Notes under the pieces: model-generated | Databases searched by the model: none | What the model saw: the letters and a program-made list of their open reading frames with translations, nothing else | Told to the model about the DNA's origin: nothing | Shown: positions 435 through 16,199 of the stretch, piece by piece | Layout: each line of letters opens with the position of its first letter | Position numbering within the stretch: the first letter of the stretch is position 1 | IMG/VR virus record: IMGVR_UViG_2740892442_000006 | DNA from: a virus | Lineage: Duplodnaviria > Heunggongvirae > Uroviricota > Caudoviricetes | Length of the DNA: 16,507 nucleotides | Direction: 5' to 3' (one strand) | Translations under genes and position numbers: made by a program

Positions 435-1487
435 ATGAAACTAAAAAAAATGCTTGAAATGGATTTCATCAAGGAGTTTCAAGAGCACCTAGAAACTGAC
501 TTTGAGCATGAACTCTTACATGCCAGTCTTCGCAACTATTGTTCTCATGGTAATCCTCTGCGCTTCAACAACTTTGCATTTGCAATACGTGAGCTAATAA
601 ATCATGTGCTGAAACGACTGGCACCAAATGACAGAGTTATGGCGTCTCCATGGTTCACTAAAAACAAAAATAACGCCACTGTTACCCGTAAACAGCAAGC
701 AAAATACATCGCCCAGAAGCATATACCCGATCAACTTCTTGATGATGTAGCTATCGAAAGACTAGATGATGGTATAGCATGGTTCAATAAAAACTATTCT
801 TCTTTAAACGATTACACCCATATTAGCGAACATTCATTTGATAGTAACCCCAAACAGTTTTTTGAGAGTGCTAAACTAATAATAGAACTGTGTAACATAA
901 TATTCGATACCTTCGATGAACTTGAGCGTGTTATTACCGAATCAATAATCGAGGAAGTACAGAATGAAGTTACTGACATCACAATGAATAATATCCCTGA
1001 CGAACTGGATATATTATCTTCACAAACAACTGTTGATTGGTGCAATGTTGAATCCATTGAGTTGCTGAACCTTGACGAAAATTATATTTATCTTTTGGTG
1101 CGCGGAATAGTTGAAATTACTAGGCAATACGGGCGTGGTGAGGATTACTTTGCACAGCAAGATTCTTATCCCTTCAAGTTTGCAGTCTCTATTCGCACTG
1201 ATAATTTCAATTTAATAGCACCATTACTTAACACTGTAGTAGTGGATACAGGCTCATGGTATGACGATGGCGAAGGATCTGCTCATTATGACACAATTTA
1301 TACAACCTCCAGATTTTTGGAGATGATCTCACATATAAAAATTAAACCAAAAACAAAGAGAAGATTGTTTCCTGAGCTTAGTACAGTAGTAACACTAGGG
1401 ATTCATGAAAGTGAAGGTATATCAGAATCGGTCGTCCCAGAAATATGTCATCTAAATCAAGGAAGCTTCAATTTAACTGAATTTTAG
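435..1487 (+). CDS. Hypothetical protein (cargo ORF A, 350 aa); no family recognised; contains an R-x4-H motif (RNYCSH, residues 33-38)
   Basis: Long ORF with an ATG start and a weak AGG upstream; first gene of a co-directional cluster in the AT-rich island. No ATPase or other catalytic signature recognised. Confidence 0.75.
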   Translation: MKLKKMLEMDFIKEFQEHLETDFEHELLHASLRNYCSHGNPLRFNNFAFAIRELINHVLKRLAPNDRVMASPWFTKNKNNATVTRKQQAKYIAQKHIPDQLLDDVAIERLDDGIAWFNKNYSSLNDYTHISEHSFDSNPKQFFESAKLIIELCNIIFDTFDELERVITESIIEEVQNEVTDITMNNIPDELDILSSQTTVDWCNVESIELLNLDENYIYLLVRGIVEITRQYGRGEDYFAQQDSYPFKFAVSIRTDNFNLIAPLLNTVVVDTGSWYDDGEGSAHYDTIYTTSRFLEMISHIKIKPKTKRRLFPELSTVVTLGIHESEGISESVVPEICHLNQGSFNLTEF

Positions 1488-1503
1488 GATTATCTATGGA
1501 GAG

Positions 1504-2442
1504 ATGAAAATGTCTAATAAGATCTATAGCCTACAAAGAATGCCTACTGAAGCATTTAAGATATTTGCAATGTCATTGCCACATGGGCCTAATTATGGTA
1601 ATGCGGAATTACTTTCCGCTTGGTCAAATGAAAAAGGGCTTGGATATGGTGCAGTCCTTCAATACAGCAAAAATTCATATGGCCTTGTTGTGCTCAGGCG
1701 ACGGGAAGATTATGTGCTGGTACCTCTCGAGCATGAGATGTGTTTTACCGAGCAGGAGGCATTGGTGCATCTTGATAAGCACCTTTCAGCCGGAGGAGAT
1801 TTATTACCGATTCCATCTGGGCAATCACGTAGAGCCCGACTGGATCATGTTGGTGAGCGGAATGTTTGTCAGGCATTTATACAATTATCGTCCACGATAA
1901 AGTACCGAGGAGCATTTCATTTAATTGTCGAGCTCTATCTGGCATTACCAAAACCTGATGATAACTTCAGAACCGATCTCCAGACCCAAGGATTCAACTC
2001 TAGAATCTGGGAGCTATACCTTTTCGCATGTTTTAAAGAGCAGGGAATTAAAGTTTTTCAAGATTATCCATCTCCGGATTTTATGCTCATGAACGGTAAT
2101 AACAAAGCATATGTTGAGGCGGTCACCGCGAATCCAACTGGTCCGGGCAGCCTAAAGTTGCCTCAAACACAATTCCCCCCCGGAGATCGATTAGCTCGCA
2201 CAGCAGGTGATATGGCAGCACGGTTCGCTAAGACCATCAGATCTAAACTCCAGAGAAAGTATGAAGAACTACCGCATGTTAAAGGATTTCCATTTGCAAT
2301 CGCTATAGCGGATTTTAGCGGTGGGGGCACTATGGTCTGGTCTCGCGAGTCACTTCCAACCTATTTGTATGGGCAAACCGCACATACAGTCAAAACATCC
2401 AAAGGTATGAAGCTGCTGCATTATCAATTGAAAAGCTTTTAG
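1504..2442 (+). CDS. Hypothetical protein (cargo ORF B, 312 aa); family unknown
   Basis: ATG at 1504 preceded by GGAGAG at 1496-1501, 16 bp after the ORF A stop. The downstream frame-0 ORF overlaps its 3' end, so B and C may be one gene split by a frameshift. Confidence 0.75.
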   Translation: MKMSNKIYSLQRMPTEAFKIFAMSLPHGPNYGNAELLSAWSNEKGLGYGAVLQYSKNSYGLVVLRRREDYVLVPLEHEMCFTEQEALVHLDKHLSAGGDLLPIPSGQSRRARLDHVGERNVCQAFIQLSSTIKYRGAFHLIVELYLALPKPDDNFRTDLQTQGFNSRIWELYLFACFKEQGIKVFQDYPSPDFMLMNGNNKAYVEAVTANPTGPGSLKLPQTQFPPGDRLARTAGDMAARFAKTIRSKLQRKYEELPHVKGFPFAIAIADFSGGGTMVWSRESLPTYLYGQTAHTVKTSKGMKLLHYQLKSF

Positions 2443-2504
2443 GCCATGTAAATATTCCGGCAGGACTATTTAACCACCCAGAGATTGAAAATTTATCTGC
2501 TATC

Positions 2505-2903
2505 TTGTTTAGTAATGCTGGAACATTGCCAAAATTCCAGCGAATGGCAATCCAAGCTGAATTTTCCTCACCTATTGTGAAAGCCCGCAGGGTTGGGATT
2601 TTATTTGATAGGACTGAAGGGGCCTTGGAACCAATTGACTTCGATCTAGATATTCAATCGCCTGAATATATTAATCTTTGCGATGGCAAAGAATTTTGGT
2701 GTTTTGAACTTGAAGTATTTCATAACCCTAATGCTGCTTATCCAATGTCCCATGATTTCCTGCCGGGGGCAACACATTGGTTTGAACACAATGGAGAGAT
2801 CATCTGTGAGACCCAATGGAAAAACCAGGTACTTGCATCAGTAACCGAGTTTAGTATTGTTCCAGATGTCGCCGATAAACTCAAAGCCAAGGAAAAGCCG
2901 TGA
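2505..2903 (+). CDS. Hypothetical protein (cargo ORF C, 132 aa as listed); possibly the C-terminal continuation of ORF B
   Basis: The frame is open from 2319 and reads like protein (...YEAAALSIEKLLGHVNIPAGLFNHPEIENLSAILF...), but has no ATG/GTG/TTG before the TTG at 2505 and no convincing Shine-Dalgarno before 2505 or the ATG at 2544. Confidence 0.5.
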   Translation: MFSNAGTLPKFQRMAIQAEFSSPIVKARRVGILFDRTEGALEPIDFDLDIQSPEYINLCDGKEFWCFELEVFHNPNAAYPMSHDFLPGATHWFEHNGEIICETQWKNQVLASVTEFSIVPDVADKLKAKEKP

Positions 2904-3006
2904 TTGCTTGATGCAAGCATATTCTTGAAAGAAGAAAATTGACAAGATTTAAAACTAATAATGAAGGGGGGAATGTTACGAGGTTGTCAGGGCTGCAACA
3001 GCAGCC

Positions 3007-3023
3007 CTGTGTCAGAAGCGGAC
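3007..3023. repeat. Partial direct copy of the palindromic repeat (CTGTGTCAGAAGCGGAC), just after an 8-bp-stem hairpin at 2988-3009
   Basis: 16 of 17 bases match copy 1 at 197-213. Hairpin CAGGGCTG-caacag-CAGCCCTG read directly. Sits between ORF C and the ORF at 3080. Confidence 0.6.
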
Positions 3024-3079
3024 ATTTTAAGCATTCGAGTGTAAGGTCTGTTTTTTAATTTGTAATTTTAGGAGGTAAC

Positions 3080-4033
3080 ATGCCAAAGAAAAGACGGTCT
3101 ATTAGCCAGGTAAAAGAAGACATTTCAATCAGGGTTCTGCGGGAAAAACTACCTCGCGAATGGGTCGTACATAGCTATGGCGCTGACTATGGTATTGATT
3201 GCGTTGTTGAATTATTTGATTTTATTGATGACAGTGAAAGTATTGCAGAAACCCTTGGTGAAAACTTCTTTGTACAACTAAAATCTTCAGATTGTATTGA
3301 ATATTGTACACGTAAAGCCTATGCTCGTGGAAATGTAACCAAAGGAAAGTTAACAGAAGATAAAAGCGATTTTGTCGAAATCCCTGTCGCAAAATTCAAG
3401 TTAGATATATCAGACATTTTGACTGTTCAGTCTATAGGTATTGCAATTCCAGTATTATTGATACTAGTTGACACTAATACAGAAAAGGCATTTTTTATTT
3501 GCCTTAATGATTACATAGATAAAGTTCTCATACCAGAAGACCCGAATTATTCTAAAAAAGACTCAAAGACTATATATATACCTCTTGAAAATGAAATTCT
3601 GGATGATGAAGATGCGCTTGTTCCATTACGTGCATATGGTAAAAGATCAAAAATGTATGGCGCATTCTCACTTTTTAACTATCAATTAAAAGAAATAAAC
3701 CGATTACAAGGTAAAGCGGCCGTACAATTTCCTGTCTCTTTCGATGAAGCTATAGAGATGGTAAATAACTTTATTGTAATTGCTCTTAGACAAGATATAT
3801 GGTCTGGTCATGAATTTTGGAAGCCGATGGTATCGAGCCAAAAGGAGTTGATCCAACTTCAAATAGATATTGATAAAGAGGTAAAACCTGAACATTATGA
3901 ACATTTTTTGAGTTACTGTTCCGAAGTGGTTTGGCATAAGTTAACAAATCTTTCAAATATGTATGAGGAGCTTGTTAGAGAATGGTTCATGCCAACCTTG
4001 CTAGCGACATTAACATCAGCCCGCCCTAAATAA
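3080..4033 (+). CDS. Hypothetical protein (cargo ORF D, 317 aa) with an N-terminal PD-(D/E)xK-like nuclease-fold motif candidate (DUF4365-like by recollection)
   Basis: Strong RBS AGGAGGT at 3068-3074, six nt before the ATG. N-terminal motifs in order: DYGID, VVELFDF, FVQLKSS, consistent with a D...E...QxK restriction-endonuclease-like core. Family assignment is from memory, not a search. Confidence 0.8.
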   Translation: MPKKRRSISQVKEDISIRVLREKLPREWVVHSYGADYGIDCVVELFDFIDDSESIAETLGENFFVQLKSSDCIEYCTRKAYARGNVTKGKLTEDKSDFVEIPVAKFKLDISDILTVQSIGIAIPVLLILVDTNTEKAFFICLNDYIDKVLIPEDPNYSKKDSKTIYIPLENEILDDEDALVPLRAYGKRSKMYGAFSLFNYQLKEINRLQGKAAVQFPVSFDEAIEMVNNFIVIALRQDIWSGHEFWKPMVSSQKELIQLQIDIDKEVKPEHYEHFLSYCSEVVWHKLTNLSNMYEELVREWFMPTLLATLTSARPK

Positions 4034-4293: not shown

Positions 4294-5397
4294 TTAGCCT
4301 TTTTTAATTTTATTTTTAGATTGTTCAATGTGATGATTTAACACTTCTCTCTTTGCCTCTTCATAGGTTAGCTCTCCATTGATTACCTTATTTTTTATTT
4401 CATTAAAAAATGAGGAGCCTTTGGGATCTTTACTTGATAAAAAAAGACTGGCTTCAGCTCTCCGAAAAGCTTCTTTCCTTGCTTCTATAGAAAATGAATT
4501 AGCAGGGTTATTTTTGTTCATAAGTTGAAGTGCCTTATTATTTATATTCGGGATGTTTTTATCTACAAGAGTTAGTCTTAACTCCGAGAATTTATTTCCT
4601 GATATTTTATAACACTGATTTTCATTTTTTTCAATATAAAGAGATTTGCTTTCTGCGCTACCACATGTCGTAGATGTTCTTGCATCAAGAAAAATAAACT
4701 TTTCTTGAAATCTTTCAATATATTTCATTGCTGTCATGCTAATAATAAAAAGAGCAACTGACACAGCAAAAAGGGATAAGCCTGATACTAAACGATTAAA
4801 ATTAAATTTCCTTTTAATAACTAATGAACTGGCTAGATTGACCATGTTATAGGGGACCATAATTATGAGTCCTATTAATATTATTTTTTCAGGAAGATTG
4901 TTCACTTGTATATGATGTTGAGCCAAGTTTCCAATATATACTGAAATCATAGAGGATATTACTATTTTTGCTGGGGATACATCTCGCAAAAATATGTATA
5001 TATAGACTGTAGTTGCACAAATCATTGCTCCTATTGGAAATGAGAGCATGAAAGCATAAGCTAATGTTGAGTAATTAAGATTTTCTGGGGCTATACCATA
5101 AGCTATGTCAAGCTTAAACTTTGCGATCCATAAGCATACTGAATATGTAAAGCCAGTTACGCCCCACTTAACCACTGTATTATTAAATACTTTATTTAAT
5201 AAATCACGATATCCTATGTATACACTGGTTAATAAAGCTATAGATGATAGAAAAATTGGAGCGGCAATGTATATATTTTCTAGCCATAATGGGTTTTCTA
5301 CAATCAAGTATCCAAAAGGTATTAAGTATATTATAGCCAATAGTTGAGGGTTGTTTAATTTGGATGATGCGTCAACCAAATTATTTTTATATTCCAT
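4294..5397 (-). CDS. Multi-pass inner-membrane protein (about seven hydrophobic segments in the N-terminal ~225 aa, then a ~140-aa charged soluble C-terminal domain); function unknown
   Basis: 367-aa ORF with AGGA about 7 nt upstream of the ATG. Starts 9 bp after the stop of the integrase at 5407-6480, on the same strand. Very AT-rich. Confidence 0.8.
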   Translation of the reverse strand: MEYKNNLVDASSKLNNPQLLAIIYLIPFGYLIVENPLWLENIYIAAPIFLSSIALLTSVYIGYRDLLNKVFNNTVVKWGVTGFTYSVCLWIAKFKLDIAYGIAPENLNYSTLAYAFMLSFPIGAMICATTVYIYIFLRDVSPAKIVISSMISVYIGNLAQHHIQVNNLPEKIILIGLIIMVPYNMVNLASSLVIKRKFNFNRLVSGLSLFAVSVALFIISMTAMKYIERFQEKFIFLDARTSTTCGSAESKSLYIEKNENQCYKISGNKFSELRLTLVDKNIPNINNKALQLMNKNNPANSFSIEARKEAFRRAEASLFLSSKDPKGSSFFNEIKNKVINGELTYEEAKREVLNHHIEQSKNKIKKG

Positions 5398-5406
5398 ATA
5401 ACGTCC

Positions 5407-6480
5407 TTATTTCAACTTTAACGCCAAATCTTCAGCTTTTGGATGATAATACCGCATTAGCATTCTTGGATCTTTATGTCCTGTAATTTTGGTCAGTTCA
5501 TGCATAGGGAAAATTTCAGCAAGTCGAGAAGTTGCTTCATGTCGAAGGTCATGAAATCTTAAATCTTTAAGGAATGATTCATCACATAATGAGTTTGTTT
5601 TCTCGTATCGTTCTCTGGCTCGTTTTACAGCTCGGTCAAAAGCTCGGGTAATCGCGTCTGCACGCATATCAAAAACCTTATCAGCAGCTGGCTTAGAATG
5701 TTCCTTGAGACTGGACAGTATCGTGATGGCTTTCGTTGATAAAGGGACATCGCGGGCATTACCATTCTTAGTATCCGGCAGATGTGCAACTCGCCGATCA
5801 AGATCGATAAAGCGCCATCGAAGATCTGCGATTTCGCTACGGCGCATGGCTGTCTCTAACGCCAGAAGAATGATTGCTGGCAATACTAATGAATGTGTTG
5901 CGGCGATGATATGTTCGATCTCGTTGGCTATTTCCTTTCCTGACGTAACACCGGTTTTCTCAGAAACTACAGGCAGCGCTTCCAGGCGTCTGGTCCTGGA
6001 GTTCTTGGGTTGAGGTTTGCGAATGGCCTCTACGGGGTTCAGCAGGCTCTCCATGCCCCATTCTTTCCGCGAAACGTTGAATACATGAGAAAGTAAGGCC
6101 AAACGCCTTAAAACGGTTGCAGGGGCATAGATTTTCAACCATTCATCTCTCAGCTTGGCGACATCGGCACTCCTGATGCTGGCCATATAGTTTTTCGCCA
6201 GCTGAGTGCCTTTTAGTATCCGCACCAATGATTGGTCTTGCACTGCCCCTTTTTTGTCGGGAACAATCTCTTTTTCATATCGCGTTAGGGCTTCATACAA
6301 TGTCGTAGATTCCGCTTCGCTGCGGCTAAGCCAAACTCCTCTCGCCATTTCTGACTCGATCATTTTGGCCCAAGCTTCTGCTTCTACTTTGGTGTTAAAG
6401 GTTTTGGTTTGAGAGGGAAAACCTCGTTTACGGATTTGAGCTTCCCATTGGTAGTTACCACGTTTGCGTATAGTCGCCAT
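5407..6480 (-). CDS. int: Tyrosine-type site-specific integrase (island integrase)
   Basis: C-terminal catalytic signature FHDLRHEATS...MRYYHP (H-x-x-R-H box and tyrosine). The ORF track starts at a TTG at 6510; the ATG at 6480 (MATIRKRGNYQWEAQIRKRG...) is the more likely start. Confidence 0.9.
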   Translation of the reverse strand: MATIRKRGNYQWEAQIRKRGFPSQTKTFNTKVEAEAWAKMIESEMARGVWLSRSEAESTTLYEALTRYEKEIVPDKKGAVQDQSLVRILKGTQLAKNYMASIRSADVAKLRDEWLKIYAPATVLRRLALLSHVFNVSRKEWGMESLLNPVEAIRKPQPKNSRTRRLEALPVVSEKTGVTSGKEIANEIEHIIAATHSLVLPAIILLALETAMRRSEIADLRWRFIDLDRRVAHLPDTKNGNARDVPLSTKAITILSSLKEHSKPAADKVFDMRADAITRAFDRAVKRARERYEKTNSLCDESFLKDLRFHDLRHEATSRLAEIFPMHELTKITGHKDPRMLMRYYHPKAEDLALKLK

Positions 6481-6568
6481 TTCTGTCTGATTCCTAACGA
6501 ACTGTGGCAATATTGTGGCAAAAAATCCATTTAAATTCGATAGGTATTGATTTTACAAGATCAATTTA

Positions 6569-6617
6569 CGCATTCGTAATGCGAAGGTCGTAGGTTCGAC
6601 TCCTATTATCGGCACCA
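6569..6617 (+). tRNA. 3'-terminal 49-nt fragment of tRNA-Thr (anticodon CGU); not a complete tRNA; likely an att-core direct-repeat copy
   Basis: Anticodon stem-loop with CGT at 6575-6577, T-arm GGTTCGACTCC, 3' acceptor strand and CCA. Matches the 3' part of enterobacterial thrW as I recall it. The upstream sequence has no 5' acceptor strand (GCCGATA) or D-arm. Confidence 0.8.
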
Positions 6618-6631
6618 TTTAAATCAATAAG

Positions 6632-7795
6632 TTACACATCATTAGTACCTTCCTTATTTTTTGACTGGGACAAATTTGGGACCGATGGGTTCAGGATCGA
6701 GTCTATTTGCCGTGCGTGTTCGGTAAGGTGATTAGGTGCAAGGTGAGCATATCGACGAACCATTTCGATAGACTCCCACCCTCCCATTTCCTGTAACACT
6801 GACAACGGGACTCCGGCTTGAACCAGCCAACTTGCCCAGGTGTGTCTCAAGTCGTGAAATCTGAAATCATCAATACCAGCCCGTCTCAGCGCCGCTTTCC
6901 AGGCTGTGTTTGCGTCATACCGCATCTTCCTTACTGTTGGCGCTTTCGTTCCGTCTGGTTTGGTACAGCTTTCCTTGTACACAAATACCCAACGGTGATG
7001 ATTCCCGATTTGTTTTTTCAATACGCGACATGCAGTATCATTCAGCGCAACGCCAATTGCGCGGTTTGATTTACTCTCTTCCGGGTTTATCCATGCCACC
7101 CGGCGCTGCATATCTATTTGTTGCCATTCAAGGTTGATGATGTTCGAGCGTCTTAAACCTGTTGCCAGTGCAAATTCAACAACAGACTTTAATGGCTCCG
7201 GACATTCATCAATCAGCCTTTGTGCTTCATGGGGCTCCAGCCAGCGGATCCGTTTATTCTTTGGTTGAGGCACTTTAATAATTGGTGCCTTATCCAGCAT
7301 TTTCCATTCACGCTCTGCGGCTCTTAGTAGGGCCTTTATAAATGAAAGATGCGTAGCCTTCGTTGCAACGGACGCTGGTTTTGGCGTGTATTCTGGAACA
7401 GGTTTCCCTTTTTTTCTGCATGCTTCTGCCCTGAGTTTCCAGTTTTCCTCATGACGCCGGTTCGTCATTTTCTGCATTGCTGAATAAATTTTTGATTCAG
7501 TAATGTCTCTTAGTTGCATTCCTGCGAAATGTTGAAGCCAGAATCCGATCCGGCTTTTGTCATCGTCCAGTGATTTTTTATGTGCTTTCTCTTCAAGCCA
7601 CCTGACACACGCTTCCTCGAACGTTATATCAGGTATTTCACCAAGTTTGCTGACCCGCCATGCTTCAGCCTTTAGCTTGTCATGGAGTTCTGTCGCCTGC
7701 CTTTTGTCCTTTGTTCCAAGAGACTGTTTAAATCTTTTACCGTTCGGCAATGTGAAACTGGCGTACCATATTTCACCTCTGCGGAAGAGTGACAT
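6632..7795 (-). CDS. int: Lambdoid (P22/SfV/e14-type) phage integrase
   Basis: N-terminus [34 protein letters not shown] is typical of this enterobacterial prophage integrase group; catalytic [10 protein letters not shown]...VRRYAHL. GAGGAA RBS. The 3' end lies 15 bp from the tRNA-Thr fragment. Confidence 0.92.
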
Positions 7796-8022
7796 TTTCT
7801 TTCCTCTGTTATGCCATCACCCGCGCTCACCTGGACAGTATGCAGCGGAGACTGAAGAGCCGCAATGCAGGCTTGTCGTGTTGTGAGGTAAGGAGATTTA
7901 TTCTTAGTGGGATCTTTGCGTGTTGCCTGAAGACGCCCTGTGCGTATCCAGTTAATGGCAGTCGGTCTGGATATCTTGAGAAAATGACAGGCCTCATCGA
8001 GTGTGAGGCTGTATGGCTCCAT
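7672..8022 (-). CDS. xis: Excisionase / AlpA-like HTH protein (about 117 aa from the ATG at 8022)
   Basis: [31 protein letters not shown] is a helix-turn-helix excisionase-like N-terminus. The ATG overlaps the upstream stop (ATGA). The 3' end overlaps the integrase start by about 124 bp in another frame, so the true stop is uncertain. Confidence 0.6.
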
Positions 8023-8327
8023 TATTTCACCTCTTGCTGTGACATTGTTGAAAAATGGATACCAGCTCGTTGCTGCCAGACGATCCAACCGAGAGTCATA
8101 TCCCATGCCATGTATTCGTTATCGCCGTTTTTTGCTCTCCGACGATCTACTAAGTCACCGAAACGCTTTTCCATGAATAATTCATAAGCTTCGCGTTCAT
8201 CTGGTTCTACTTCCAGCGATAGGAGTGCGATTTCATAAGCACGGCGCTCAATATCGTCTCGCACGTCAAGGCTGCTGATACGCTCTTTAATTTCTTTAAT
8301 CAGTTCTTTGTCGGTAAAAGTGATCAT
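8022..8327 (-). CDS. Hypothetical prophage early protein (101 aa)
   Basis: Coding-like codon usage; start overlaps the upstream stop (TAATG) and its stop overlaps the xis start, indicating one coupled operon. Confidence 0.65.
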   Translation of the reverse strand: MITFTDKELIKEIKERISSLDVRDDIERRAYEIALLSLEVEPDEREAYELFMEKRFGDLVDRRRAKNGDNEYMAWDMTLGWIVWQQRAGIHFSTMSQQEVK

Positions 8328-8689
8328 TATGCTCCAGCCTCCGGTGCTTTTGGCATTATTGCCCAGTGAGTGATATTGACGTTTTCAAGGTCCCCGACCT
8401 GAAATGTCCACTGCCATTCTCCGGTTTCTTTTTGTCCCCAGGTGTACCAGAGAGAACGCCTGCCAATTAGCCAGCCTTCTCCGTTAGCATCGAATAACAA
8501 AACACTTTCATTTGCTGGTGGCAGTTCAGCTGACACTGGTATTACTTTGTTTTCCTGTGCTGCACATTTAGCTTCAAGCGCATCGAATTTACGCACCAGG
8601 TATTCAGCATCTGTTTCATTTACTTTCAGATCTCGCGGTACACATCTCCCACGAAGAAACCCTTCCATTTCGAAAACATTCATGCGCAT
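8327..8689 (-). CDS. Hypothetical prophage early protein (120 aa)
   Basis: ORF in the same minus-strand operon, overlapping both neighbours by a few bases. Confidence 0.65.
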   Translation of the reverse strand: MRMNVFEMEGFLRGRCVPRDLKVNETDAEYLVRKFDALEAKCAAQENKVIPVSAELPPANESVLLFDANGEGWLIGRRSLWYTWGQKETGEWQWTFQVGDLENVNITHWAIMPKAPEAGA

Positions 8690-9243
8690 TTGCGTAACTC
8701 CGATAACTCGTTAAAACGTTCCATAAACATCCCGTAGGCATGGCCCGGTGCCTGTGGAATCACTTTGAACATCTCTGTTGCCGGGATACCTTCCAGTACA
8801 GGCCAGAAAGAGCCATCATCAAGCCCGAGATCGCGGCGTTCGGTTGCCAGCATAATGAGATCGGCATATTTCACTGGCGTGCTCATAACAGGAGGTAACC
8901 CGTATTTCTCACGTATTACGGCGTCTATTTTTTCTTCCATCCGTTTATAGTCAGGAAGAAGTCGTTTCAGTGGTGCGGGGATGTCCTGGCAATATGCTTC
9001 TGTTGCATCATGCATTAAAGCTTCAAAAGCAAATTCCTGTGGCACCAGCTGGCTGCAAAGCACCGCATGTTGGGCGACACTGTAGAAGTGTGAAAGATGT
9101 CCTGCAAAGCGACAGATATTTGAAAGGGAAACCGCGATATCGTTAATAACGATGTCGTCTTTATTTATCCTGTCATAATAAAAATGCTTCCCGGAAAAAG
9201 TTTTAATAAATGACATTTTGTTCTCCACGTATATGCGCTGCAC
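8680..9243 (-). CDS. HD-domain phosphohydrolase (YfdR-like, as found in enterobacterial prophages)
   Basis: Ordered H...HD motifs (SVAQHAVLCSQL then ALMHDATEAY) in a protein of about 187 aa; first gene of the leftward operon ending in xis and int. Confidence 0.65.
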   Translation of the reverse strand: MQRIYVENKMSFIKTFSGKHFYYDRINKDDIVINDIAVSLSNICRFAGHLSHFYSVAQHAVLCSQLVPQEFAFEALMHDATEAYCQDIPAPLKRLLPDYKRMEEKIDAVIREKYGLPPVMSTPVKYADLIMLATERRDLGLDDGSFWPVLEGIPATEMFKVIPQAPGHAYGMFMERFNELSELRKCA

Positions 9244-9340
9244 CGCGCTGAATTCGGGTAAAAGGAAGCCCTCACCGTCCGGCGATTATTGAGTCAATTA
9301 CATTTCCATAAATGCCCCCGTAGGGCGGTTAGTTTCTCCA

Positions 9341-9427
9341 CAAAACAGAGAAGAACACCTGCGGTGGCAGCCGCCCGGATGGATTGGGTTATGAGCCCGT
9401 CGTCCGGTGATGCTCTTCTCTGTTTTG
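9341..9427. repeat. Inverted repeat: 17-bp arms (CAAAACAGAGAAGAACA at 9341-9357 and its complement at 9411-9427, one mismatch) around a 53-bp spacer
   Basis: Read directly, in the 435-bp region between the divergent minus-strand and plus-strand prophage operons. Confidence 0.7.
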
Positions 9428-9473
9428 TAAAAAGGACGGTATCCGCCTGACGGCTAATCAGGCATATCACCAG

Positions 9474-9677
9474 ATGGTGAAGCTGGGGATCGTCGAGCAG
9501 CGCGAACGATACAGCCGTACCGCGATTAACAACATCAAAAAATTCTGGTCGCTGACAGCGAAAGGCTGCATGTTCGGCAAGAACATCACCAGTCCTGCAA
9601 ATCCGCGCGAGACGCAGCCGCATTTCTTCGAATCCCGATTCCCTGAGCTGTTAAAGCTGCTCGATACCGTTCATTGA
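9474..9677 (+). CDS. Possible small ORF (67 aa) just upstream of the DUF968-like gene
   Basis: ATG start, coding-like third-position bias, stop 1 bp before the next gene; no recognisable family. Competes with a minus-strand ORF that I rejected. Confidence 0.3.
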   Translation: MVKLGIVEQRERYSRTAINNIKKFWSLTAKGCMFGKNITSPANPRETQPHFFESRFPELLKLLDTVH

Positions 9678-9678
9678 G

Positions 9679-10674
9679 GTGACCGTGAGAGCACTACTGA
9701 CCCCTGAAATAGCCCCGCGTATGGGGATCGTATTGTTCAGACCCGGTTCAGAGCTGATGCCCCTGTTTATGCAGGGGCGTGTCCTGCTGGAGCCTGAGCC
9801 GGAACGTTATTCATCTTTCGCCAGTGGTGCCGTTCCCGCGGCATCACAACCGCTGGCGGATGATCCTGCCGTTCGAGCCGTGTTCTGCAATGAGGCAGTG
9901 ATCCGTCGTGCTGGTGGCGTGGAATGTCTTGAAAGCTGGTTACTTCGTGAAAAGGGCTGTCAGTGGCCTCATTCCGACTGGCACAGCGAGAACATGACCA
10001 CAATGCGACACGCGCCGGGCGCGATCCGTCTGTGCTGGCACTGCGATAACCAGCTGCGCGATCAGTTCACGGAACGGCTGGAATCAATGGCAACGGATAA
10101 CTGTGCCCGCTGGGTGTTGTCTGTTGTGCGTCGGGATCTCGGTTTTGATGACAGTCACGTTGTGACAATGCCGGAACTGTGCTGGTGGCTGATTCGTAAT
10201 GACCTGGCGGATGCCTTACCGGAAAGTGCAGCCCGTAAGGCACTGAGATTACCGAAGCCTGTTGTGCCGTCTGTCACCCGGGAAAGTGACCTTGTGCCTT
10301 CGGTTCCTGCCACCAGCATCATCCAGGATAAGGCGAAAAAGGTGCTGGCGCTGAAAGTGGATCCGGAGTCGCCGGAGTCTTTTATGTTACGCCCAAAACG
10401 TCGCCGCTGGGTTAATGAAAAGTACACGCGCTGGGTTAAGACACAGCCGTGTGCATGTTGTGGAAAGCCTGCTGATGATCCCCACCACCTGATAGGCCAC
10501 GGTCAGGGTGGGATGGGTACAAAAGCGCATGACCTCTTTGTGTTGCCTTTGTGCAGAAAGCATCACGACGAGCTGCATGCGGATACCGTGGCATTTGAAG
10601 AGAAGTATGGCTCCCAGCTGGAGCTGATATTTCGTTTTATCGATCGTGCGCTGGCAATAGGCGTACTGGCGTAA
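9679..10674 (+). CDS. Prophage protein with a C-terminal HNH-like Cys/His cluster (DUF968-like)
   Basis: 331-aa ORF with a GTG start. C-terminus CACCGKPADDPHHLIGHGQGG...CRKHHDELH is a zinc-finger/HNH-type signature. Sits immediately upstream of Q, as in the nin region of lambdoid phages. Confidence 0.65.
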   Translation: MTVRALLTPEIAPRMGIVLFRPGSELMPLFMQGRVLLEPEPERYSSFASGAVPAASQPLADDPAVRAVFCNEAVIRRAGGVECLESWLLREKGCQWPHSDWHSENMTTMRHAPGAIRLCWHCDNQLRDQFTERLESMATDNCARWVLSVVRRDLGFDDSHVVTMPELCWWLIRNDLADALPESAARKALRLPKPVVPSVTRESDLVPSVPATSIIQDKAKKVLALKVDPESPESFMLRPKRRRWVNEKYTRWVKTQPCACCGKPADDPHHLIGHGQGGMGTKAHDLFVLPLCRKHHDELHADTVAFEEKYGSQLELIFRFIDRALAIGVLA

Positions 10675-10687
10675 GTGGAGAACGAGC

Positions 10688-11416
10688 ATGAACCTTGAAG
10701 CTTTACCAAAATATTACTCCCCAAAATCTCCAAAATTGAGTGATGACGCACCGGCGACAGGCTCGGGTGGTTTAACAATTACAGATGTGATGGCTGCGCA
10801 GGGGATGGTGCAGTCGAAAGCACCGCTTGGGTTTGCCTTATTCCTGGCAAAAGTTGGTGTTCAGGATCCTCAGTTTGCGATTGAAGGTCTGCTCAATTAC
10901 GCGATGGCACTGGATAACCCGACATTGAACAAATTGAGTGAAGAAATCCGGTTACAGATCATCCCTTACCTTGTGAATTTTGCCTTTGCTGATTATTCCA
11001 GGTCTGCGGCAAGTAAGGCTCGCTGTGAGCATTGTGCTGGTACTGGATTTCATAATGTATTGCGCGAGGTGGTGAAACACTCCAGAAGCGGGGAATCTGT
11101 TATCAAGGAAGAGTGGGTGAAGGAACTATGTCAGCATTGTCATGGTAAGGGAGAAGTCAGCACAGCGTGCAGAGGGTGTAAGGGTAAAGGTATTGTCCTG
11201 GATGAAAAAAGGACCCGGCTTCATGGCACGCCTGTTTATAAGATTTGTGGGCGTTGCAATGGAAACCGATTTAGCCGTTTACCAACCACACTGGCGCGGA
11301 ATCATGTCCAGAAGCTGGTACCAGACCTGCCGAAGATCTGGGAAAAGTCACTTTCCGCCCGTCCATCACGGCTTATGTGGTGGGAGATGACTGCTTTGAC
11401 CAGCGCGATCGCCTGA
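10688..11416 (+). CDS. Q: Late-gene antiterminator Q homolog (lambda Q family); C-terminus probably altered by a deletion junction
   Basis: N-terminus MNLEALPKYYSPKSPKLSDD...TDVMAAQGM parallels lambda Q as I recall it, followed by CxxCxGxG zinc-finger repeats. The last ~30 codons overlap an N-like reading frame. Confidence 0.75.
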   Translation: MNLEALPKYYSPKSPKLSDDAPATGSGGLTITDVMAAQGMVQSKAPLGFALFLAKVGVQDPQFAIEGLLNYAMALDNPTLNKLSEEIRLQIIPYLVNFAFADYSRSAASKARCEHCAGTGFHNVLREVVKHSRSGESVIKEEWVKELCQHCHGKGEVSTACRGCKGKGIVLDEKRTRLHGTPVYKICGRCNGNRFSRLPTTLARNHVQKLVPDLPKIWEKSLSARPSRLMWWEMTALTSAIA

Positions 11417-12531
11417 TTGACGCGCTGAATAAACCCGGTCCCGGCACGCTTGTCCACCCGACATACGGTGAGTTGAAAGTCTGTGTTGACGGGGAAGTTC
11501 GGGTCAGCACATCGAAGAGTGAAGGGCGTATTGTCCGCTTTGACCTGAAGTTTGTCGAAGCGGGAGATCTCTCTTACCCCACATCAGGCGTGGCGACGGC
11601 GCAGACGCTGATGTCATCCTGTTCTGCACTGGATGACTGCATCAGTGACAGCTTCAGCGGTTTCAGTATCGATGGCGTGGCAGATTTTGTGCAGAACGAC
11701 GTCGTCGGTAATGTCGGCACAATGCTTGGGTATGTTTCTGATGCGATGAAAGTGGTGGATTCTGCCGTATCGGATGCCGCCAGGCTGTTGCAGGGGGATA
11801 TCTCGGTACTTCTTCCGCCGCCATCGTCAGGCAAAAATTTCGTTGAGCAGGTGCAGAAAATGTGGCGTACCGGGAAACGCCTTTATGGTAACGCCAGCGA
11901 CCTGGTCACCATGATCAAAACGCTTTCCGGTGTCAGCCTTGGCAGCGATCTGCAACCGCGCGGCGTCTGGAAAACGGACAGTAAAACCACCGCCACGGCG
12001 ACGCAGCAGCGTAACGTGGTTGCCAGCACCCTTCGTACGACCGCAATCAGCGAAGCGGCGTATGTCGTCACACGATTGCCTGCGCCCACAACTTCCGCGG
12101 TGATGCAGAATGCCACAGTGGGGCAGTCAACAACACCCGCGCAGAGCACCGGCTGGCCTTCTGTCACGCATCCGGCACTGAACAATGCACCGGCGGTGAA
12201 AAACACGGTTGACCTGCCAACGTGGGAAGAACTGACCGACATTCGCGACACACTGAATACGGCAATTGATAAGGAGTTGTCCCGTACAACCAGTGATGCG
12301 CTGTTTCTGGTGCTGCGCCGGGTGAAAGCAGATCTGAATGCGGATATCAACACGCGCCTTGAACAGTCTGCACGGATCATTCAGCGCACGCCGGATGAGG
12401 TTTTACCCGCGCTGGTGCTGGCGGCGACCTGGTTTGATAACGCGGCGCGTGACGCGGACATTATCCGGCGTAATGCCATTACGCATCCCGGCTTTGTGCC
12501 GGTGATCCCTCTGAAGGTGCCAGTGCAATGA
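11377..12531 (+). pseudogene. Mu gp43 (N)-like DNA circularization / tail protein, 5'-truncated
   Basis: Similar in length and position to Mu N, but about 100 residues shorter than I recall for the family. The frame is open from 11275 and overlaps the Q 3' end. GTG start only. Stop overlaps the next start (ATGA). Confidence 0.6.
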
Positions 12532-13606
12532 ACGACAATGTCACGCTACGGGTAAATGGCCGGGAGTGGAATGGCTGGACATCGGTGCGCATCGGTGCCG
12601 GTATTGAACGGCTGGCGCGGGATTTCAGTGTGGAGATCACCCGCCAGTGGCCGGGAGATGAGGGTATCACCACGCTTCAGCCGCGCATTAAAAACGGTTC
12701 AAAAGTGGAAGTGCTGATTGGTGATGAGCTGGTGATCACCGGCTGGGTGGAGGCGACGCCCGTTCGTTACGATGCCCGTTCGGTCAGCACCGGTATTGCC
12801 GGACGTAGTCTGACGGCTGACCTGATTGACTGTGCAGCCGAACCGACACAGTTTAACGGACGCTCGCTGGTGCAGATTGCGCAGGCGCTTGCTGCGCCTT
12901 TCGGCATTGAGGTGGTGAACAGCGGTGCGCCGTCGGGTGTTATTCCTGATGTTCAGCCTGATCACGGTGAAACGGTGATTGAGGTAATAAACAAAATACT
13001 CGGTCAGCAGCAGGCGCTGGCTTACGACGACCCGCACGGCAGGCTGGTGATTGGCGGTATTGGCTCAACGCGGCACATACCGCGCTGGTACTTGGGGAAA
13101 ACATCCTTTCCTGCGATACGGAGAAGAGTATCCGGGAGCGGTTTTCTGTTTACCAGGTGGCGGGGCAGCGTGCCGGAAACGACGATGATTTCGGTGAGGT
13201 CACCACCACCGCGCTGCGGGCCCGCACAGAGGACGCATTTATTGCCCGTTACCGTCCGATGTATATCAGGCAGACAGGGCAGGCCACGGGGGCAGGCTGT
13301 ATTGCGCGTGCTGACTTTGAAGCCCGACAACGGGCGGCGCGGACGGATGAAACCACCTATGTGGTGCAGGGCTGGCGACAGGGTAACGGTACGCTGTGGC
13401 AGCCCAACCAGCGGGTGATTGTCTTTGATCCGGTCTGTGGTTTCGACAATACCGAACTGCTTGTCTCGGAAGTCACGTTTACTCAGGACCAGAACGGCAC
13501 CCTGACGGAAATCCGTGTCGGCCCGCCTGATGCTTATCTGCCTGAACCCGAAGCCCCCGGCGCGCGGAAAAAGAAAAAAGCCAGAGTACAGGAGGACCCG
13601 TTCTGA
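12528..13606 (+). pseudogene. Mu gp44 (P)-like baseplate hub / tail protein, interrupted by a frameshift near 13065-13080
   Basis: Frame 0 (12528-13418) and frame 2 (open upstream of 13157, to 13606) each read like protein: ...GGIGSTRH then ...TALVLGENILSCDTEKSIRERFSVYQVAGQ... The combined length of about 359 aa fits the family. Confidence 0.6.
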
Positions 13607-14154
13607 TGAGGACGATTGAAGCCATGCAGCGACAACTTCTCGGCCTGATTGCGCGGGCAGTGGTGAAAAGCATCAGTGCCGCCACGAAATGTCAGACCGT
13701 GGATGTGTCCCTGATTGCCGGTGAACCCAAAGCCGGGGTTGAACATCTTGAACCCTACGGTTTTACCGCAAGGGCAAACAGCGGCGCGGAAGCGGTGGTG
13801 TTGTTTCCGGATGGCGACCGTTCTCATGCGGTGGTTGTTACGGTGTCGGACCGGCGCTACCGCCTGAAAGGGTTGCAGACGGGTGAGGTGGCTGTCTATG
13901 ACGATCAGGGGCAGTCTGTGACGCTGACCCGGGAGGGGATCGTGGTGGACGGTGCAGGTAAAACGATCACGTTTCGCAATTCACCTAAAGCACGTTTTGA
14001 AATGGACCTGGAAGTGACAGGACAGGTGAAAGACCTGTGCGACTCCAGCGGCACTACCATGTCAGCGATGCGGCTTGCCTATAACGGGCATCGTCACAGA
14101 GAGAACGGTCAGGGCAGTAACACCGACAAACCGGATAAAGCGATGGAGGCATGA
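13606..14154 (+). CDS. Mu gp45-like baseplate assembly / spike protein (gpV-like)
   Basis: About 182 aa, translationally coupled to its neighbours (TGATG upstream, ATGA downstream); position and size match a Mu-type baseplate module. Confidence 0.65.
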   Translation: MRTIEAMQRQLLGLIARAVVKSISAATKCQTVDVSLIAGEPKAGVEHLEPYGFTARANSGAEAVVLFPDGDRSHAVVVTVSDRRYRLKGLQTGEVAVYDDQGQSVTLTREGIVVDGAGKTITFRNSPKARFEMDLEVTGQVKDLCDSSGTTMSAMRLAYNGHRHRENGQGSNTDKPDKAMEA

Positions 14155-14579
14155 TGGAACTGTGGCTGACGGTGAACGGTAAACGCACCTGCGCCAGCGC
14201 ACCGCTGGATCCGCTGACCCGCGCCGTGGTGATTTCCCTGTTTACCTGGCGGCGGGCGGAGCCTGATGACAACGCCGACGTCCCGATGGGATGGTGGGGG
14301 GATACCTGGCCTGCGGTACAGAATGACCGTTACGGCTCCCGACTGTGGCTGCTTCAGCGCAGCAAACTGACCAATCAGCTGGTGCAGACAGTAAGGGGGT
14401 ATATCCGCGAATGCCTGCAATGGATGATTGATGACGGCGTGGTGTCCCGTATTGATCTGGATATCCGCCGCACCGGGATTAATGAGCTGGGTAACAGTAT
14501 CACCCTCTGGCGTCGTGACGGACCGGTAATGATTTCTTTTGATGATCTGTGGAGTGCGATAACGCATGGCGGACAGTGA
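14151..14579 (+). CDS. Mu gp46-like baseplate protein
   Basis: About 142 aa, overlapping both neighbours; order gp45-gp46-gp47-gp48 is conserved. Confidence 0.65.
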   Translation: MMELWLTVNGKRTCASAPLDPLTRAVVISLFTWRRAEPDDNADVPMGWWGDTWPAVQNDRYGSRLWLLQRSKLTNQLVQTVRGYIRECLQWMIDDGVVSRIDLDIRRTGINELGNSITLWRRDGPVMISFDDLWSAITHGGQ

Positions 14580-15624
14580 ATTTCAGCGCCCGACGCTGGC
14601 AGAAAATATCAGTATGCTCCGTAACGATTTATTCGCCAGGCTGGACGTCAGCGACACGCTCCGGCGCATGGATGAAGACGTGCGGGCAAAGGTGTATGCG
14701 GCGGCGCTGCATACGGTTTACGGGTACATCGATTATCTGGCAATGAACATGCTGCCTGACCTGTGCGATGAGTCCTGGCTGGCGCGACATGCTGCGATGA
14801 AACGGTGTCCGCGCAAGGGGGCCACGGCTGCCAGCGGGTATATGCGTTGGGAAGGTGTCAGCGATGGCCTGAAGGTGACCGCCGGGAGTGTTATTCAGCG
14901 CGATGACCTGGTTCAGTACACGGCAACTGCCGATGCAACCAGCTCCGGTGGTGTCCTGCGCGTGCCGATCGCCTGCTCAAGTGCAGGCGCGGTCGGTAAC
15001 GCTGACGACGGTACGTCATTAATCCTGGTCACGCCGGTTAATGGTCTGCCGTCTTCCGGCGTGGCAGATACCCTTACAGGCGGATTTGATACTGAAGAGC
15101 TGGAAACGTGGCGCGCCCGCGTCATTGAGCGGTATTACTGGACGCCTCAGGGCGGGGCTGACGGGGACTATGTCGTCTGGGCTAAAGAAGTGCCCGGCAT
15201 TACCCGCGCATGGACATACCGTCACTGGATGGGAACGGGAACTGTCGGTGTGATGATTGCCAGCAGTGACCTGATTAATCCCATTCCGGAAGAATCAACG
15301 GAAACGGCAGCAAGACAACATATCGGGCCACTGGCCCCGGTGGCAGGCTCTGATTTGTATGTATTCAGGCCGGTGGCACATACGGTGGATTTTCATATCC
15401 GCGTGACGCCGGACACACCGGAAATACGGGCTGCCATTACCGCGGAGTTGCGTTCGTTCCTGCTGCGTGATGGTTATCCGCAGGGAGAACTGAAGGTATC
15501 GCGTATCAGTGAGGCGATTTCCGGTGCGAACGGGGAATACAGCCATCAGTTGCTTGCACCGGTGGACAATATCTCCATTGCGAAAAACGAACTGGCGGTA
15601 CTGGGGACGATTTCATGGACGTGA
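14566..15624 (+). CDS. Baseplate J-like protein (Mu gp47 / e14 JayE-like)
   Basis: About 352 aa, in the expected position between the gp46-like and gp48-like genes. Confidence 0.7.
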
Positions 15625-16199
15625 CAAACGATGATTACATCCGCCTGTTATCGGCACTGTTGCCGCCCGGTCCGGCGTGGTCAGCCAGCGATCCGGCGAT
15701 TGCCGGTGCGGCACCGTCATTAACCCGTGTTCATCAGCGTGCGGATGCCCTGATGCGGGAGCTGGATCCGCGCACCACCACTGAACTGATAAACCGCTGG
15801 GAGCGTCTGTGCGGTCTGCCGGATGAATGTATTCCGGCGGGAACGCAGACCCTTCGCCAGCGTCAGCAACGGCTGGATGCGAAGGTTAACCTGGCGGGCG
15901 GCATCAACGAGGATTTTTATCTTGCACAGCTTGCTGCCCTGGGCAGACCAGATGCCACCATCACGCGATACGACAAAAGCACGTTCACCTGCTCATCGGC
16001 CTGTACTGACGCGGTGAATGCGCCGGAATGGCGGTATTACTGGCAGGTCAACATGCCAGCCGCCACCAACACCACCTGGATGACATGTGGCGATCCCTGT
16101 GATTCCGCACTGCGTATCTGGGGTGACACCGTTGTCGAGTGTGTGCTTAACAAACTCTGCCCGTCGCATACCTACGTAATTTTTAAATATCCGGAGTAA
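15615..16199 (+). CDS. Mu gp48-like tail protein (DUF2313 / YmfQ-like)
   Basis: About 194 aa; N-terminus [23 protein letters not shown] resembles the YmfQ family as I recall it; immediately precedes the tail fiber gene. Confidence 0.65.

Follow-up and report, generated by a model that had tools for sequence, protein, structure and literature searches.

A Q–N deletion junction in a decayed SfV/e14-like prophage at thrW of Escherichia coli

The sequence analysed here, hereafter referred to as the window, is the whole 16,507-nt stretch of the IMG/VR record IMGVR_UViG_2740892442_000006. Its gene content is that of a reduced lambdoid prophage. A 49-nt 3′ fragment of a tRNA-Thr gene (6569–6617) lies next to a tyrosine integrase gene (6632–7795), and the yfdR/S/T-int region, a KilA-N gene reduced to its 3′ fragment and an intact DUF968/HNH-like gene (the last two at 9438–10674, plus strand) are found upstream of a remnant of an antitermination gene Q (10688–11329, plus strand). 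This remnant runs directly into the remnant of a Mu-N-like tail gene (11330–12531, plus strand), which is followed by a distal tail module on the same strand (12528–16199) encoding a Mu P-like baseplate hub and homologues of gp45/V, gp46, gp47/J and gp48/YmfQ, with fibre genes that continue past 16199. Both the integrase beside a tRNA-Thr attachment fragment and the colinear gene order are those of an SfV-like prophage at thrW. No structured RNAs or tRNAs were detected in the window by Rfam at gathering thresholds or by ARAGORN.

The Q-like open reading frame extends from 10688 to 11416, encodes 242 residues and matches Pfam PF03589 (antitermination protein Q, E = 9.7e-42), while a match to the DnaJ-type CxxCxGxG motif stayed below threshold (31.1 bits against the Pfam cut-off of 32.7). 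The initial annotation had described this gene as intact-looking, with some doubt about its last 30 codons or so. The doubt was well placed and the description was not. Residues 1–214 are native and identical to full-length Q, being encoded by nt 1–642 of a 753-nt, 250-aa gene of the lambda family, and the last 36 of the 250 residues (the last 111 nt), equivalent to Qλ 172–207, are missing. Over these 642 nt, the window shows 100% identity to Q of the intact prophage that E. coli JE86-ST05 carries at thrW. Residues 215–242 align neither to full-length Q nor to Qλ; they are read from 28 codons followed by a TGA stop (11330–11416, plus strand) that consist of N-gene DNA in the wrong frame, 100% identical over this stretch to SfV orf15. 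The 753-nt full-length Q gene is present in 2,418 of 5,426 E. coli genomes, and nearly all evenly sampled Q matches (58 of 60) span it from end to end.

The consequences of this truncation can be gauged from the structure of Qλ. A full-length relative of the window Q aligns with Qλ (PDB 7UBM) from residue 1 to the last (E = 1.3e-37), and its residues 160–250 pair with Qλ 117–207 without gaps; therefore, the native Q sequence breaks off at the position of Qλ residue 171. The N-terminal segment and the zinc-ribbon arm are kept, and the zinc-ribbon cysteines C161, C164, C187 and C190 are invariant in the alignment of the window Q with Qλ. According to the published structural account (PMC9388147), the body of Qλ is made of residues 61–113 and 153–207, helices H4 and H5 form the DNA-binding helix-turn-helix that binds the Q-binding element, and NusA contacts residues 182–197. 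It describes residues 195–207, including L202 and T206, as the region that contacts the flap-tip helix of RNA polymerase and later the Q torus, and substitutions of L202 and T206 as abolishing antitermination (PMC9388147). Projected onto this description, the break would fall between H4 and H5, so that a complete helix-turn-helix would be absent, and the segment equivalent to the contacts with NusA (182–197) and with the flap tip and torus (L202, T206) is not encoded by the window Q. Because H5 and the C-terminal contacts are missing, the remnant should neither bind its DNA site nor antiterminate. Its site of action is also gone, as the late-promoter region downstream of Q lies within the deletion. 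Residual binding of RNA polymerase through the N-terminal and zinc-ribbon parts could in principle be retained.

On the other side of the junction, the 11330–12531 remnant derives from a gene for a 'DNA circularization' tail protein of the Mu-N/SfV-orf15 type from which the 5′ end is missing. Its DNA is 97.8–98.3% identical to orf15 of SfV, SfII and SfI, and its product aligns with the JE86 and SfV proteins over 399 residues at 97–98% identity, colinear to the end. The initial annotation had estimated that roughly the first 100 residues were lost; the actual figure is lower. The first residues that remain, EDLGK, start at position 44 of the 442-aa allele or 49 of the SfV protein as annotated with 447 aa. 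The product therefore lacks 43 or 48 residues, respectively, and the gene has lost its first 127 or 142 nt, including the start codon. Only positions 39–88 of the 88-position profile PF07157 are covered, as opposed to positions 2–88 in SfV orf15. An open frame, other than that of Q, extends from 11332 to 12531, and the first possible start within it is a GTG at 11377. Initiation at this codon would leave N without 58–63 residues and half of its conserved N-terminal domain, and direct reading of the sequence upstream of this GTG revealed no evident Shine-Dalgarno motif. We infer that the N remnant is translated little or not at all.

The two frames overlap by 85 nt (11332–11416), or by 40 nt when the GTG at 11377 is taken as the start of N, in agreement with the initial annotation, which had noted that the Q frame overlaps an N-like gene in another frame. 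An in-frame Q–N fusion protein was considered and rejected, since the frames differ and the Q open reading frame stops at 11416. Both remnants are dead pseudogenes, and RefSeq (PGAP) already marks them as such in two carrier genomes, E. coli E4 and TUM10008, where they are labelled 'antitermination protein, missing C-terminus' and 'DNA circularization protein, missing N-terminus'.

A three-way base comparison of the window with the left and right arms of the intact prophage placed the breakpoint at 11329|11330. Homology to Q stops at 11329 and homology to N starts at 11330, both by megablast and by base-by-base comparison. The same boundary was found among 50,697 phage records, in which the Q matches (phage Ayreon and Stx2c phages) stop at 11329 and the N matches (SfV, SfI, SfII and SfIV) start at 11330. 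A megablast search with positions 9000–14000 of the window against 5,426 complete E. coli genomes covered the full query in E4 and TUM10008 only, and among the 20 records listed of 4,028, many others matched from 11330 (query base 2331) onward. The Q segment alone as query gave matches in 2,847 genomes, stopping at 11329 or, for some alleles, at 11332. Homologues with the same arrangement and with both genes complete were sought, and full-length Q and N were never so arranged; the Q–N junction itself is present in 2 of the 5,426 genomes. Its sequence is identical in these two independent complete genomes, E4 (USA, poultry) and TUM10008 (Japan), which carry different islands to the left of the prophage and differ as well in the IS3 insertion next to pinE. 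The restriction of the junction to two genomes that differ in these respects indicates that the deletion is recent and confined to one lineage.

The quality of the window sequence has to be considered at this point. Compared to TUM10008, the window displays zero substitutions and five single-base deletions (406, 2412, 4533, 9323 and 13072), each of them in a short run of C or G, and E4 agrees with TUM10008 at the two of these sites that it covers. These deletions give rise to apparent frameshifts in the baseplate hub gene, which is split by the 1-nt deletion at 13072 into 12528–13418 and 13157–13606 as opposed to an intact gene of 1,080 nt, in a PD-T7-1-like gene (1504–2442 and 2505–2903) and in two minus-strand genes that appear fused (4294–5397). 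The five indels look like long-read homopolymer errors of the source assembly and not like real mutations. Such private errors could raise the suspicion that the junction, too, is an artefact of assembly or sequencing, that is, a chimeric join. Nevertheless, none of the five falls within 11270–11420, and the identical junction occurs in two genomes that were assembled independently in different countries. We thus give the artefact explanation next to no weight and treat the junction as a genuine feature of the chromosome.

The extent of the loss can be read from JE86-ST05, which has an intact-looking prophage at tRNA-Thr (thrW, next to proA) that is colinear with the window. The window is shorter than this prophage by 16,317 bp at the junction, where Q nt 642 is followed directly by N nt 128. 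Alignment against SfV, which had been suggested as a way to map the breakpoint, was also run and gave an equivalent loss of 15,413 bp in SfV coordinates, with an N breakpoint at nt 143 in SfV numbering. The missing interval begins with the final 111 nt of Q, followed by the adjoining downstream intergenic region. On the lysis side, it comprises the genes for a holin, an endolysin, a lysis protein and an HNH endonuclease. On the head side, the small and large terminase subunits (terS/terL), the portal, the protease, the major capsid protein and the connector and closure proteins were lost. The tail side comprises the sheath, the tube, a tail-assembly protein, the tape measure, a small open reading frame and the first 127 nt of N. 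The initial annotation had read the locus as a deletion junction that removed lysis, head and proximal tail genes, and this gene list is in full accordance with it. The cos site, beside the lysis cassette and the terminase, would also have been in the lost stretch. A terminator is annotated about 100 nt past the Q stop in SfV and Ayreon; this whole region is deleted in the window, in which Q is not directly followed by a cognate late promoter with a Q-binding element and terminator.

Two smaller deletions relative to JE86-ST05 are located further to the left. The first one removed 1,305 bp (yfdQ/yfdP; junction at ~9322–9325, with a 4-bp overlap). The second one removed 6,351 bp (junction at ~9438–9441, also with a 4-bp overlap) that contained the repressor, cro, replication and nin-like genes and the 5′ part of the KilA-N gene. 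A 120-bp relic separates the two junctions. As a result of these two deletions, the remnant has neither immunity nor replication genes, and together with the 16,317 bp missing between Q and N, about 24 kb have been lost relative to an intact thrW prophage.

The base sequence around 11329|11330 provided insights into how the junction may have arisen. The join is blunt, with 0 bp of microhomology when the 100%-identical Q allele is used for comparison and an overlap of at most 3 bp (CCG) possible with other Q alleles, and no direct or inverted repeats or IS ends were found at this position. Homologous, site-specific and IS-mediated origins of the junction were rejected for want of any repeat, IS end or microhomology. 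This lack of traces points to illegitimate (homology-independent) recombination as the process that produced it.

Meanwhile, the two arms of the remnant are not equally close to JE86-ST05. Positions 9438–11329 (1,892 bp) are 100% identical to the JE86-ST05 prophage, which encodes a DUF968 protein identical to that of the window, and the right arm is just 97.9% identical. The true parent is therefore not in the databases, and the size given for the deletion is an estimate. This inequality is also what might be expected if the element were a hybrid that two prophages, or a resident remnant and a newly entering phage, had formed by illegitimate recombination, and the best relative of the right arm, F1005 (99.5%), carries a different type of Q gene. 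We consider such a hybrid origin unlikely. The prophages found at thrW are ordinary mosaics, in which one structural module is combined with varied early and Q modules at the same locus, and the unequal similarity of the arms to JE86 is explained by this ordinary mosaicism. F1005 itself is an intact-looking prophage at the same locus and is bordered on the right by the same truncated LysR pseudogene. In addition, the int/attL side and the right border of the element (the truncated LysR pseudogene next to the pao genes) fit a single occupancy of thrW, and the outcome would be unchanged either way, namely two pseudogenes and the absence of the late genes.

The genes to the right of N have fared better. 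In E4 and TUM10008, the distal tail module is annotated as intact, and it is colinear with SfV orf16–20; the persistence of baseplate and fibre genes, which the initial annotation had pointed out, is thus confirmed in the carrier genomes. The same annotation had found no sheath, tube or tape-measure genes ahead of N and had concluded that the remnant cannot make a particle, and it was right on both counts: such genes occur neither in the window nor in the remnant of E4 and TUM10008, and in the intact relative all of them lie within the deleted interval. It could be argued from the intact baseplate and fibre reading frames of E4 and TUM10008 that the arrangement was selected for a function, with a truncated Q that was domesticated, a tail-derived module borne on the Q transcript, or both. 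The existence of a second, independent deletion in another strain that also starts in the last 90 nt of Q would fit with this idea. Nevertheless, a protein that is without one of its helix-turn-helix helices and its C-terminal contacts, next to a deleted late-promoter region, argues against a working Q, and an element that lacks sheath, tube and tape measure can form neither a tailocin nor a particle. A simple consensus scan of 9100–12600, a weak tool, yielded no rightward sigma-70-like promoter and one minus-strand site against 2.2 expected, an outcome that is not decisive. The restriction of the junction to two genomes speaks against selection as well, and the reading frames are intact at 98–100% identity to live phages, which recency explains better than selection does. 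Hence, we regard a selected function as very improbable, and the baseplate and fibre genes that survive are most probably recent passengers of a decayed prophage and not a working machine.

The flanks of the remnant displayed a different gene content. A second tyrosine integrase (5407–6510, minus strand) is located directly left of the tRNA-Thr fragment, and the presence of two integrases flanking this fragment indicates that two elements are arranged in tandem at thrW. The minus-strand neighbours of the second integrase encode an antitoxin of the VbhA family and an uncharacterised protein which, judged by eye, looks like a multi-pass membrane protein. At the position of the second integrase, E4 carries a different, CP4-like island with Ag43 and CbtA/CbeA. 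In TUM10008, PGAP annotates a 112-nt 'tRNA-Ser' between the two integrases that was not reproduced by ARAGORN or Rfam. Further to the left of the prophage, positions 435–4033 of the window hold a small defence-type island. It encodes a pPIWI-associating nuclease (PF18165/PF18166; PADLOC Aga_Nuclease, E = 1.4e-58) that has no evident Argonaute gene beside it, a 464-aa PD-T7-1-like protein (PADLOC E = 3.8e-83) and a DUF4365 protein. Defence-type cargo is also found in TUM10008 at the right end of the remnant, past pinE and to the right of the window (locus coordinates 22035–28066), and includes a LEM-3-like GIY-YIG protein, a DNA cytosine methyltransferase with a type II restriction endonuclease, DUF6650 and AbiTii. 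The remnant may owe its persistence in the lineage to this cargo beyond pinE.

Based on these findings, we propose, with a probability of roughly 0.93, that the window contains a decayed SfV/e14-like thrW prophage in which one illegitimate deletion of ~16.3 kb joined Q to N; no observation speaks against the deletion as such. The starting point would have been a lambdoid prophage of the SfV/e14 type, with a Mu-like contractile tail, integrated at the tRNA-Thr gene thrW of an E. coli chromosome. A single illegitimate event would then have connected Q nt 642 to N nt 128, converting both flanking genes into pseudogenes and eliminating the lysis, packaging, head and proximal tail genes. The element would have persisted since the loss of lysis and of late-gene expression presumably rendered it harmless. 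These findings imply that this thrW element is unable to lyse its cell or to produce particles, and that the reading frames of Q and N are best annotated as pseudogenes, as is done by RefSeq in the two carriers. The junction provides an example, resolved to the base, of homology-independent deletion during prophage decay, and it can serve as a marker for the lineage that carries it. This is the ordinary decay of a well-known prophage family (PMC3636060) and is already reflected in public annotation; its importance beyond annotation is small, and no open question is advanced by it.

The closest parallel to this event was found in E. coli USDA-ARS-USMARC-49610 (NZ_CP104123), in which a prophage of the same kind has a deletion that extends from near the 3′ end of Q into the tail module. 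This deletion is independent: Q nt 666 is joined to the 3′ part of the tape-measure gene (locus coordinates 7251–8813), the junction has 8 bp of microhomology, and N is full-length. Two independent deletions in different lineages thus start at Q nt 642 and nt 666, within 24 nt of each other. One may speculate that the last ~110 nt of Q are a recurrent left endpoint of deletions that disarm SfV-like prophages, although we hold this to be doubtful, as two endpoints are equally consistent with chance and too few to be told from coincidence. If it were true, it would imply either a local fragile site or selection for the loss of late-gene activation and lysis in one step, by deletions that spare the DUF968 gene and the distal tail, fibre and invertase cargo.

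Compared to Qλ (PDB 4MO1 and 7UBM), the window Q has conserved the N-terminal segment and the zinc-ribbon cysteines, whereas it ends at the equivalent of Qλ residue 171, without H5 and the C-terminal helix, and carries an insertion of ~47 alignment columns (window 11030–11270, Q residues ~113–160). This insertion characterises the YdfT-like Q subfamily, in which it adds two CxxCxGxG motifs and brings the number of DnaJ-like zinc-finger motifs to four; it is a trait of the subfamily as a whole and not of this locus.

The serotype-converting Shigella/E. coli phages SfV, SfI, SfII and SfIV and the intact thrW prophages share with the window an integrase that adjoins a tRNA-Thr 3′ fragment, and integration of the SfV group at thrW has been documented (PMC3636060). 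The SfV group and the JE86-ST05 prophage also share the gene order int-xis-yfdT/S/R ... KilA-N-DUF968-Q ... N-P-gp45-gp46-gp47-gp48-fibre, at a DNA identity of 97.8–100%. Between the tRNA-Thr fragment and int, the window lacks the gtr genes for serotype conversion, unlike the SfV group.

The element is also reminiscent of e14 of E. coli K-12, which is likewise lambdoid and defective and has distal tail genes like those of SfV. e14 is located at icd and has undergone deletions of its own, and the Q::N junction at thrW is an event separate from it. In the E. coli records that we examined, the e14 gene names ymfQ, pinE and tfaE are used for the same families. The packaging and morphogenesis genes of e14 are reported to be homologous to those of SfV and SfI (PMC3636060).
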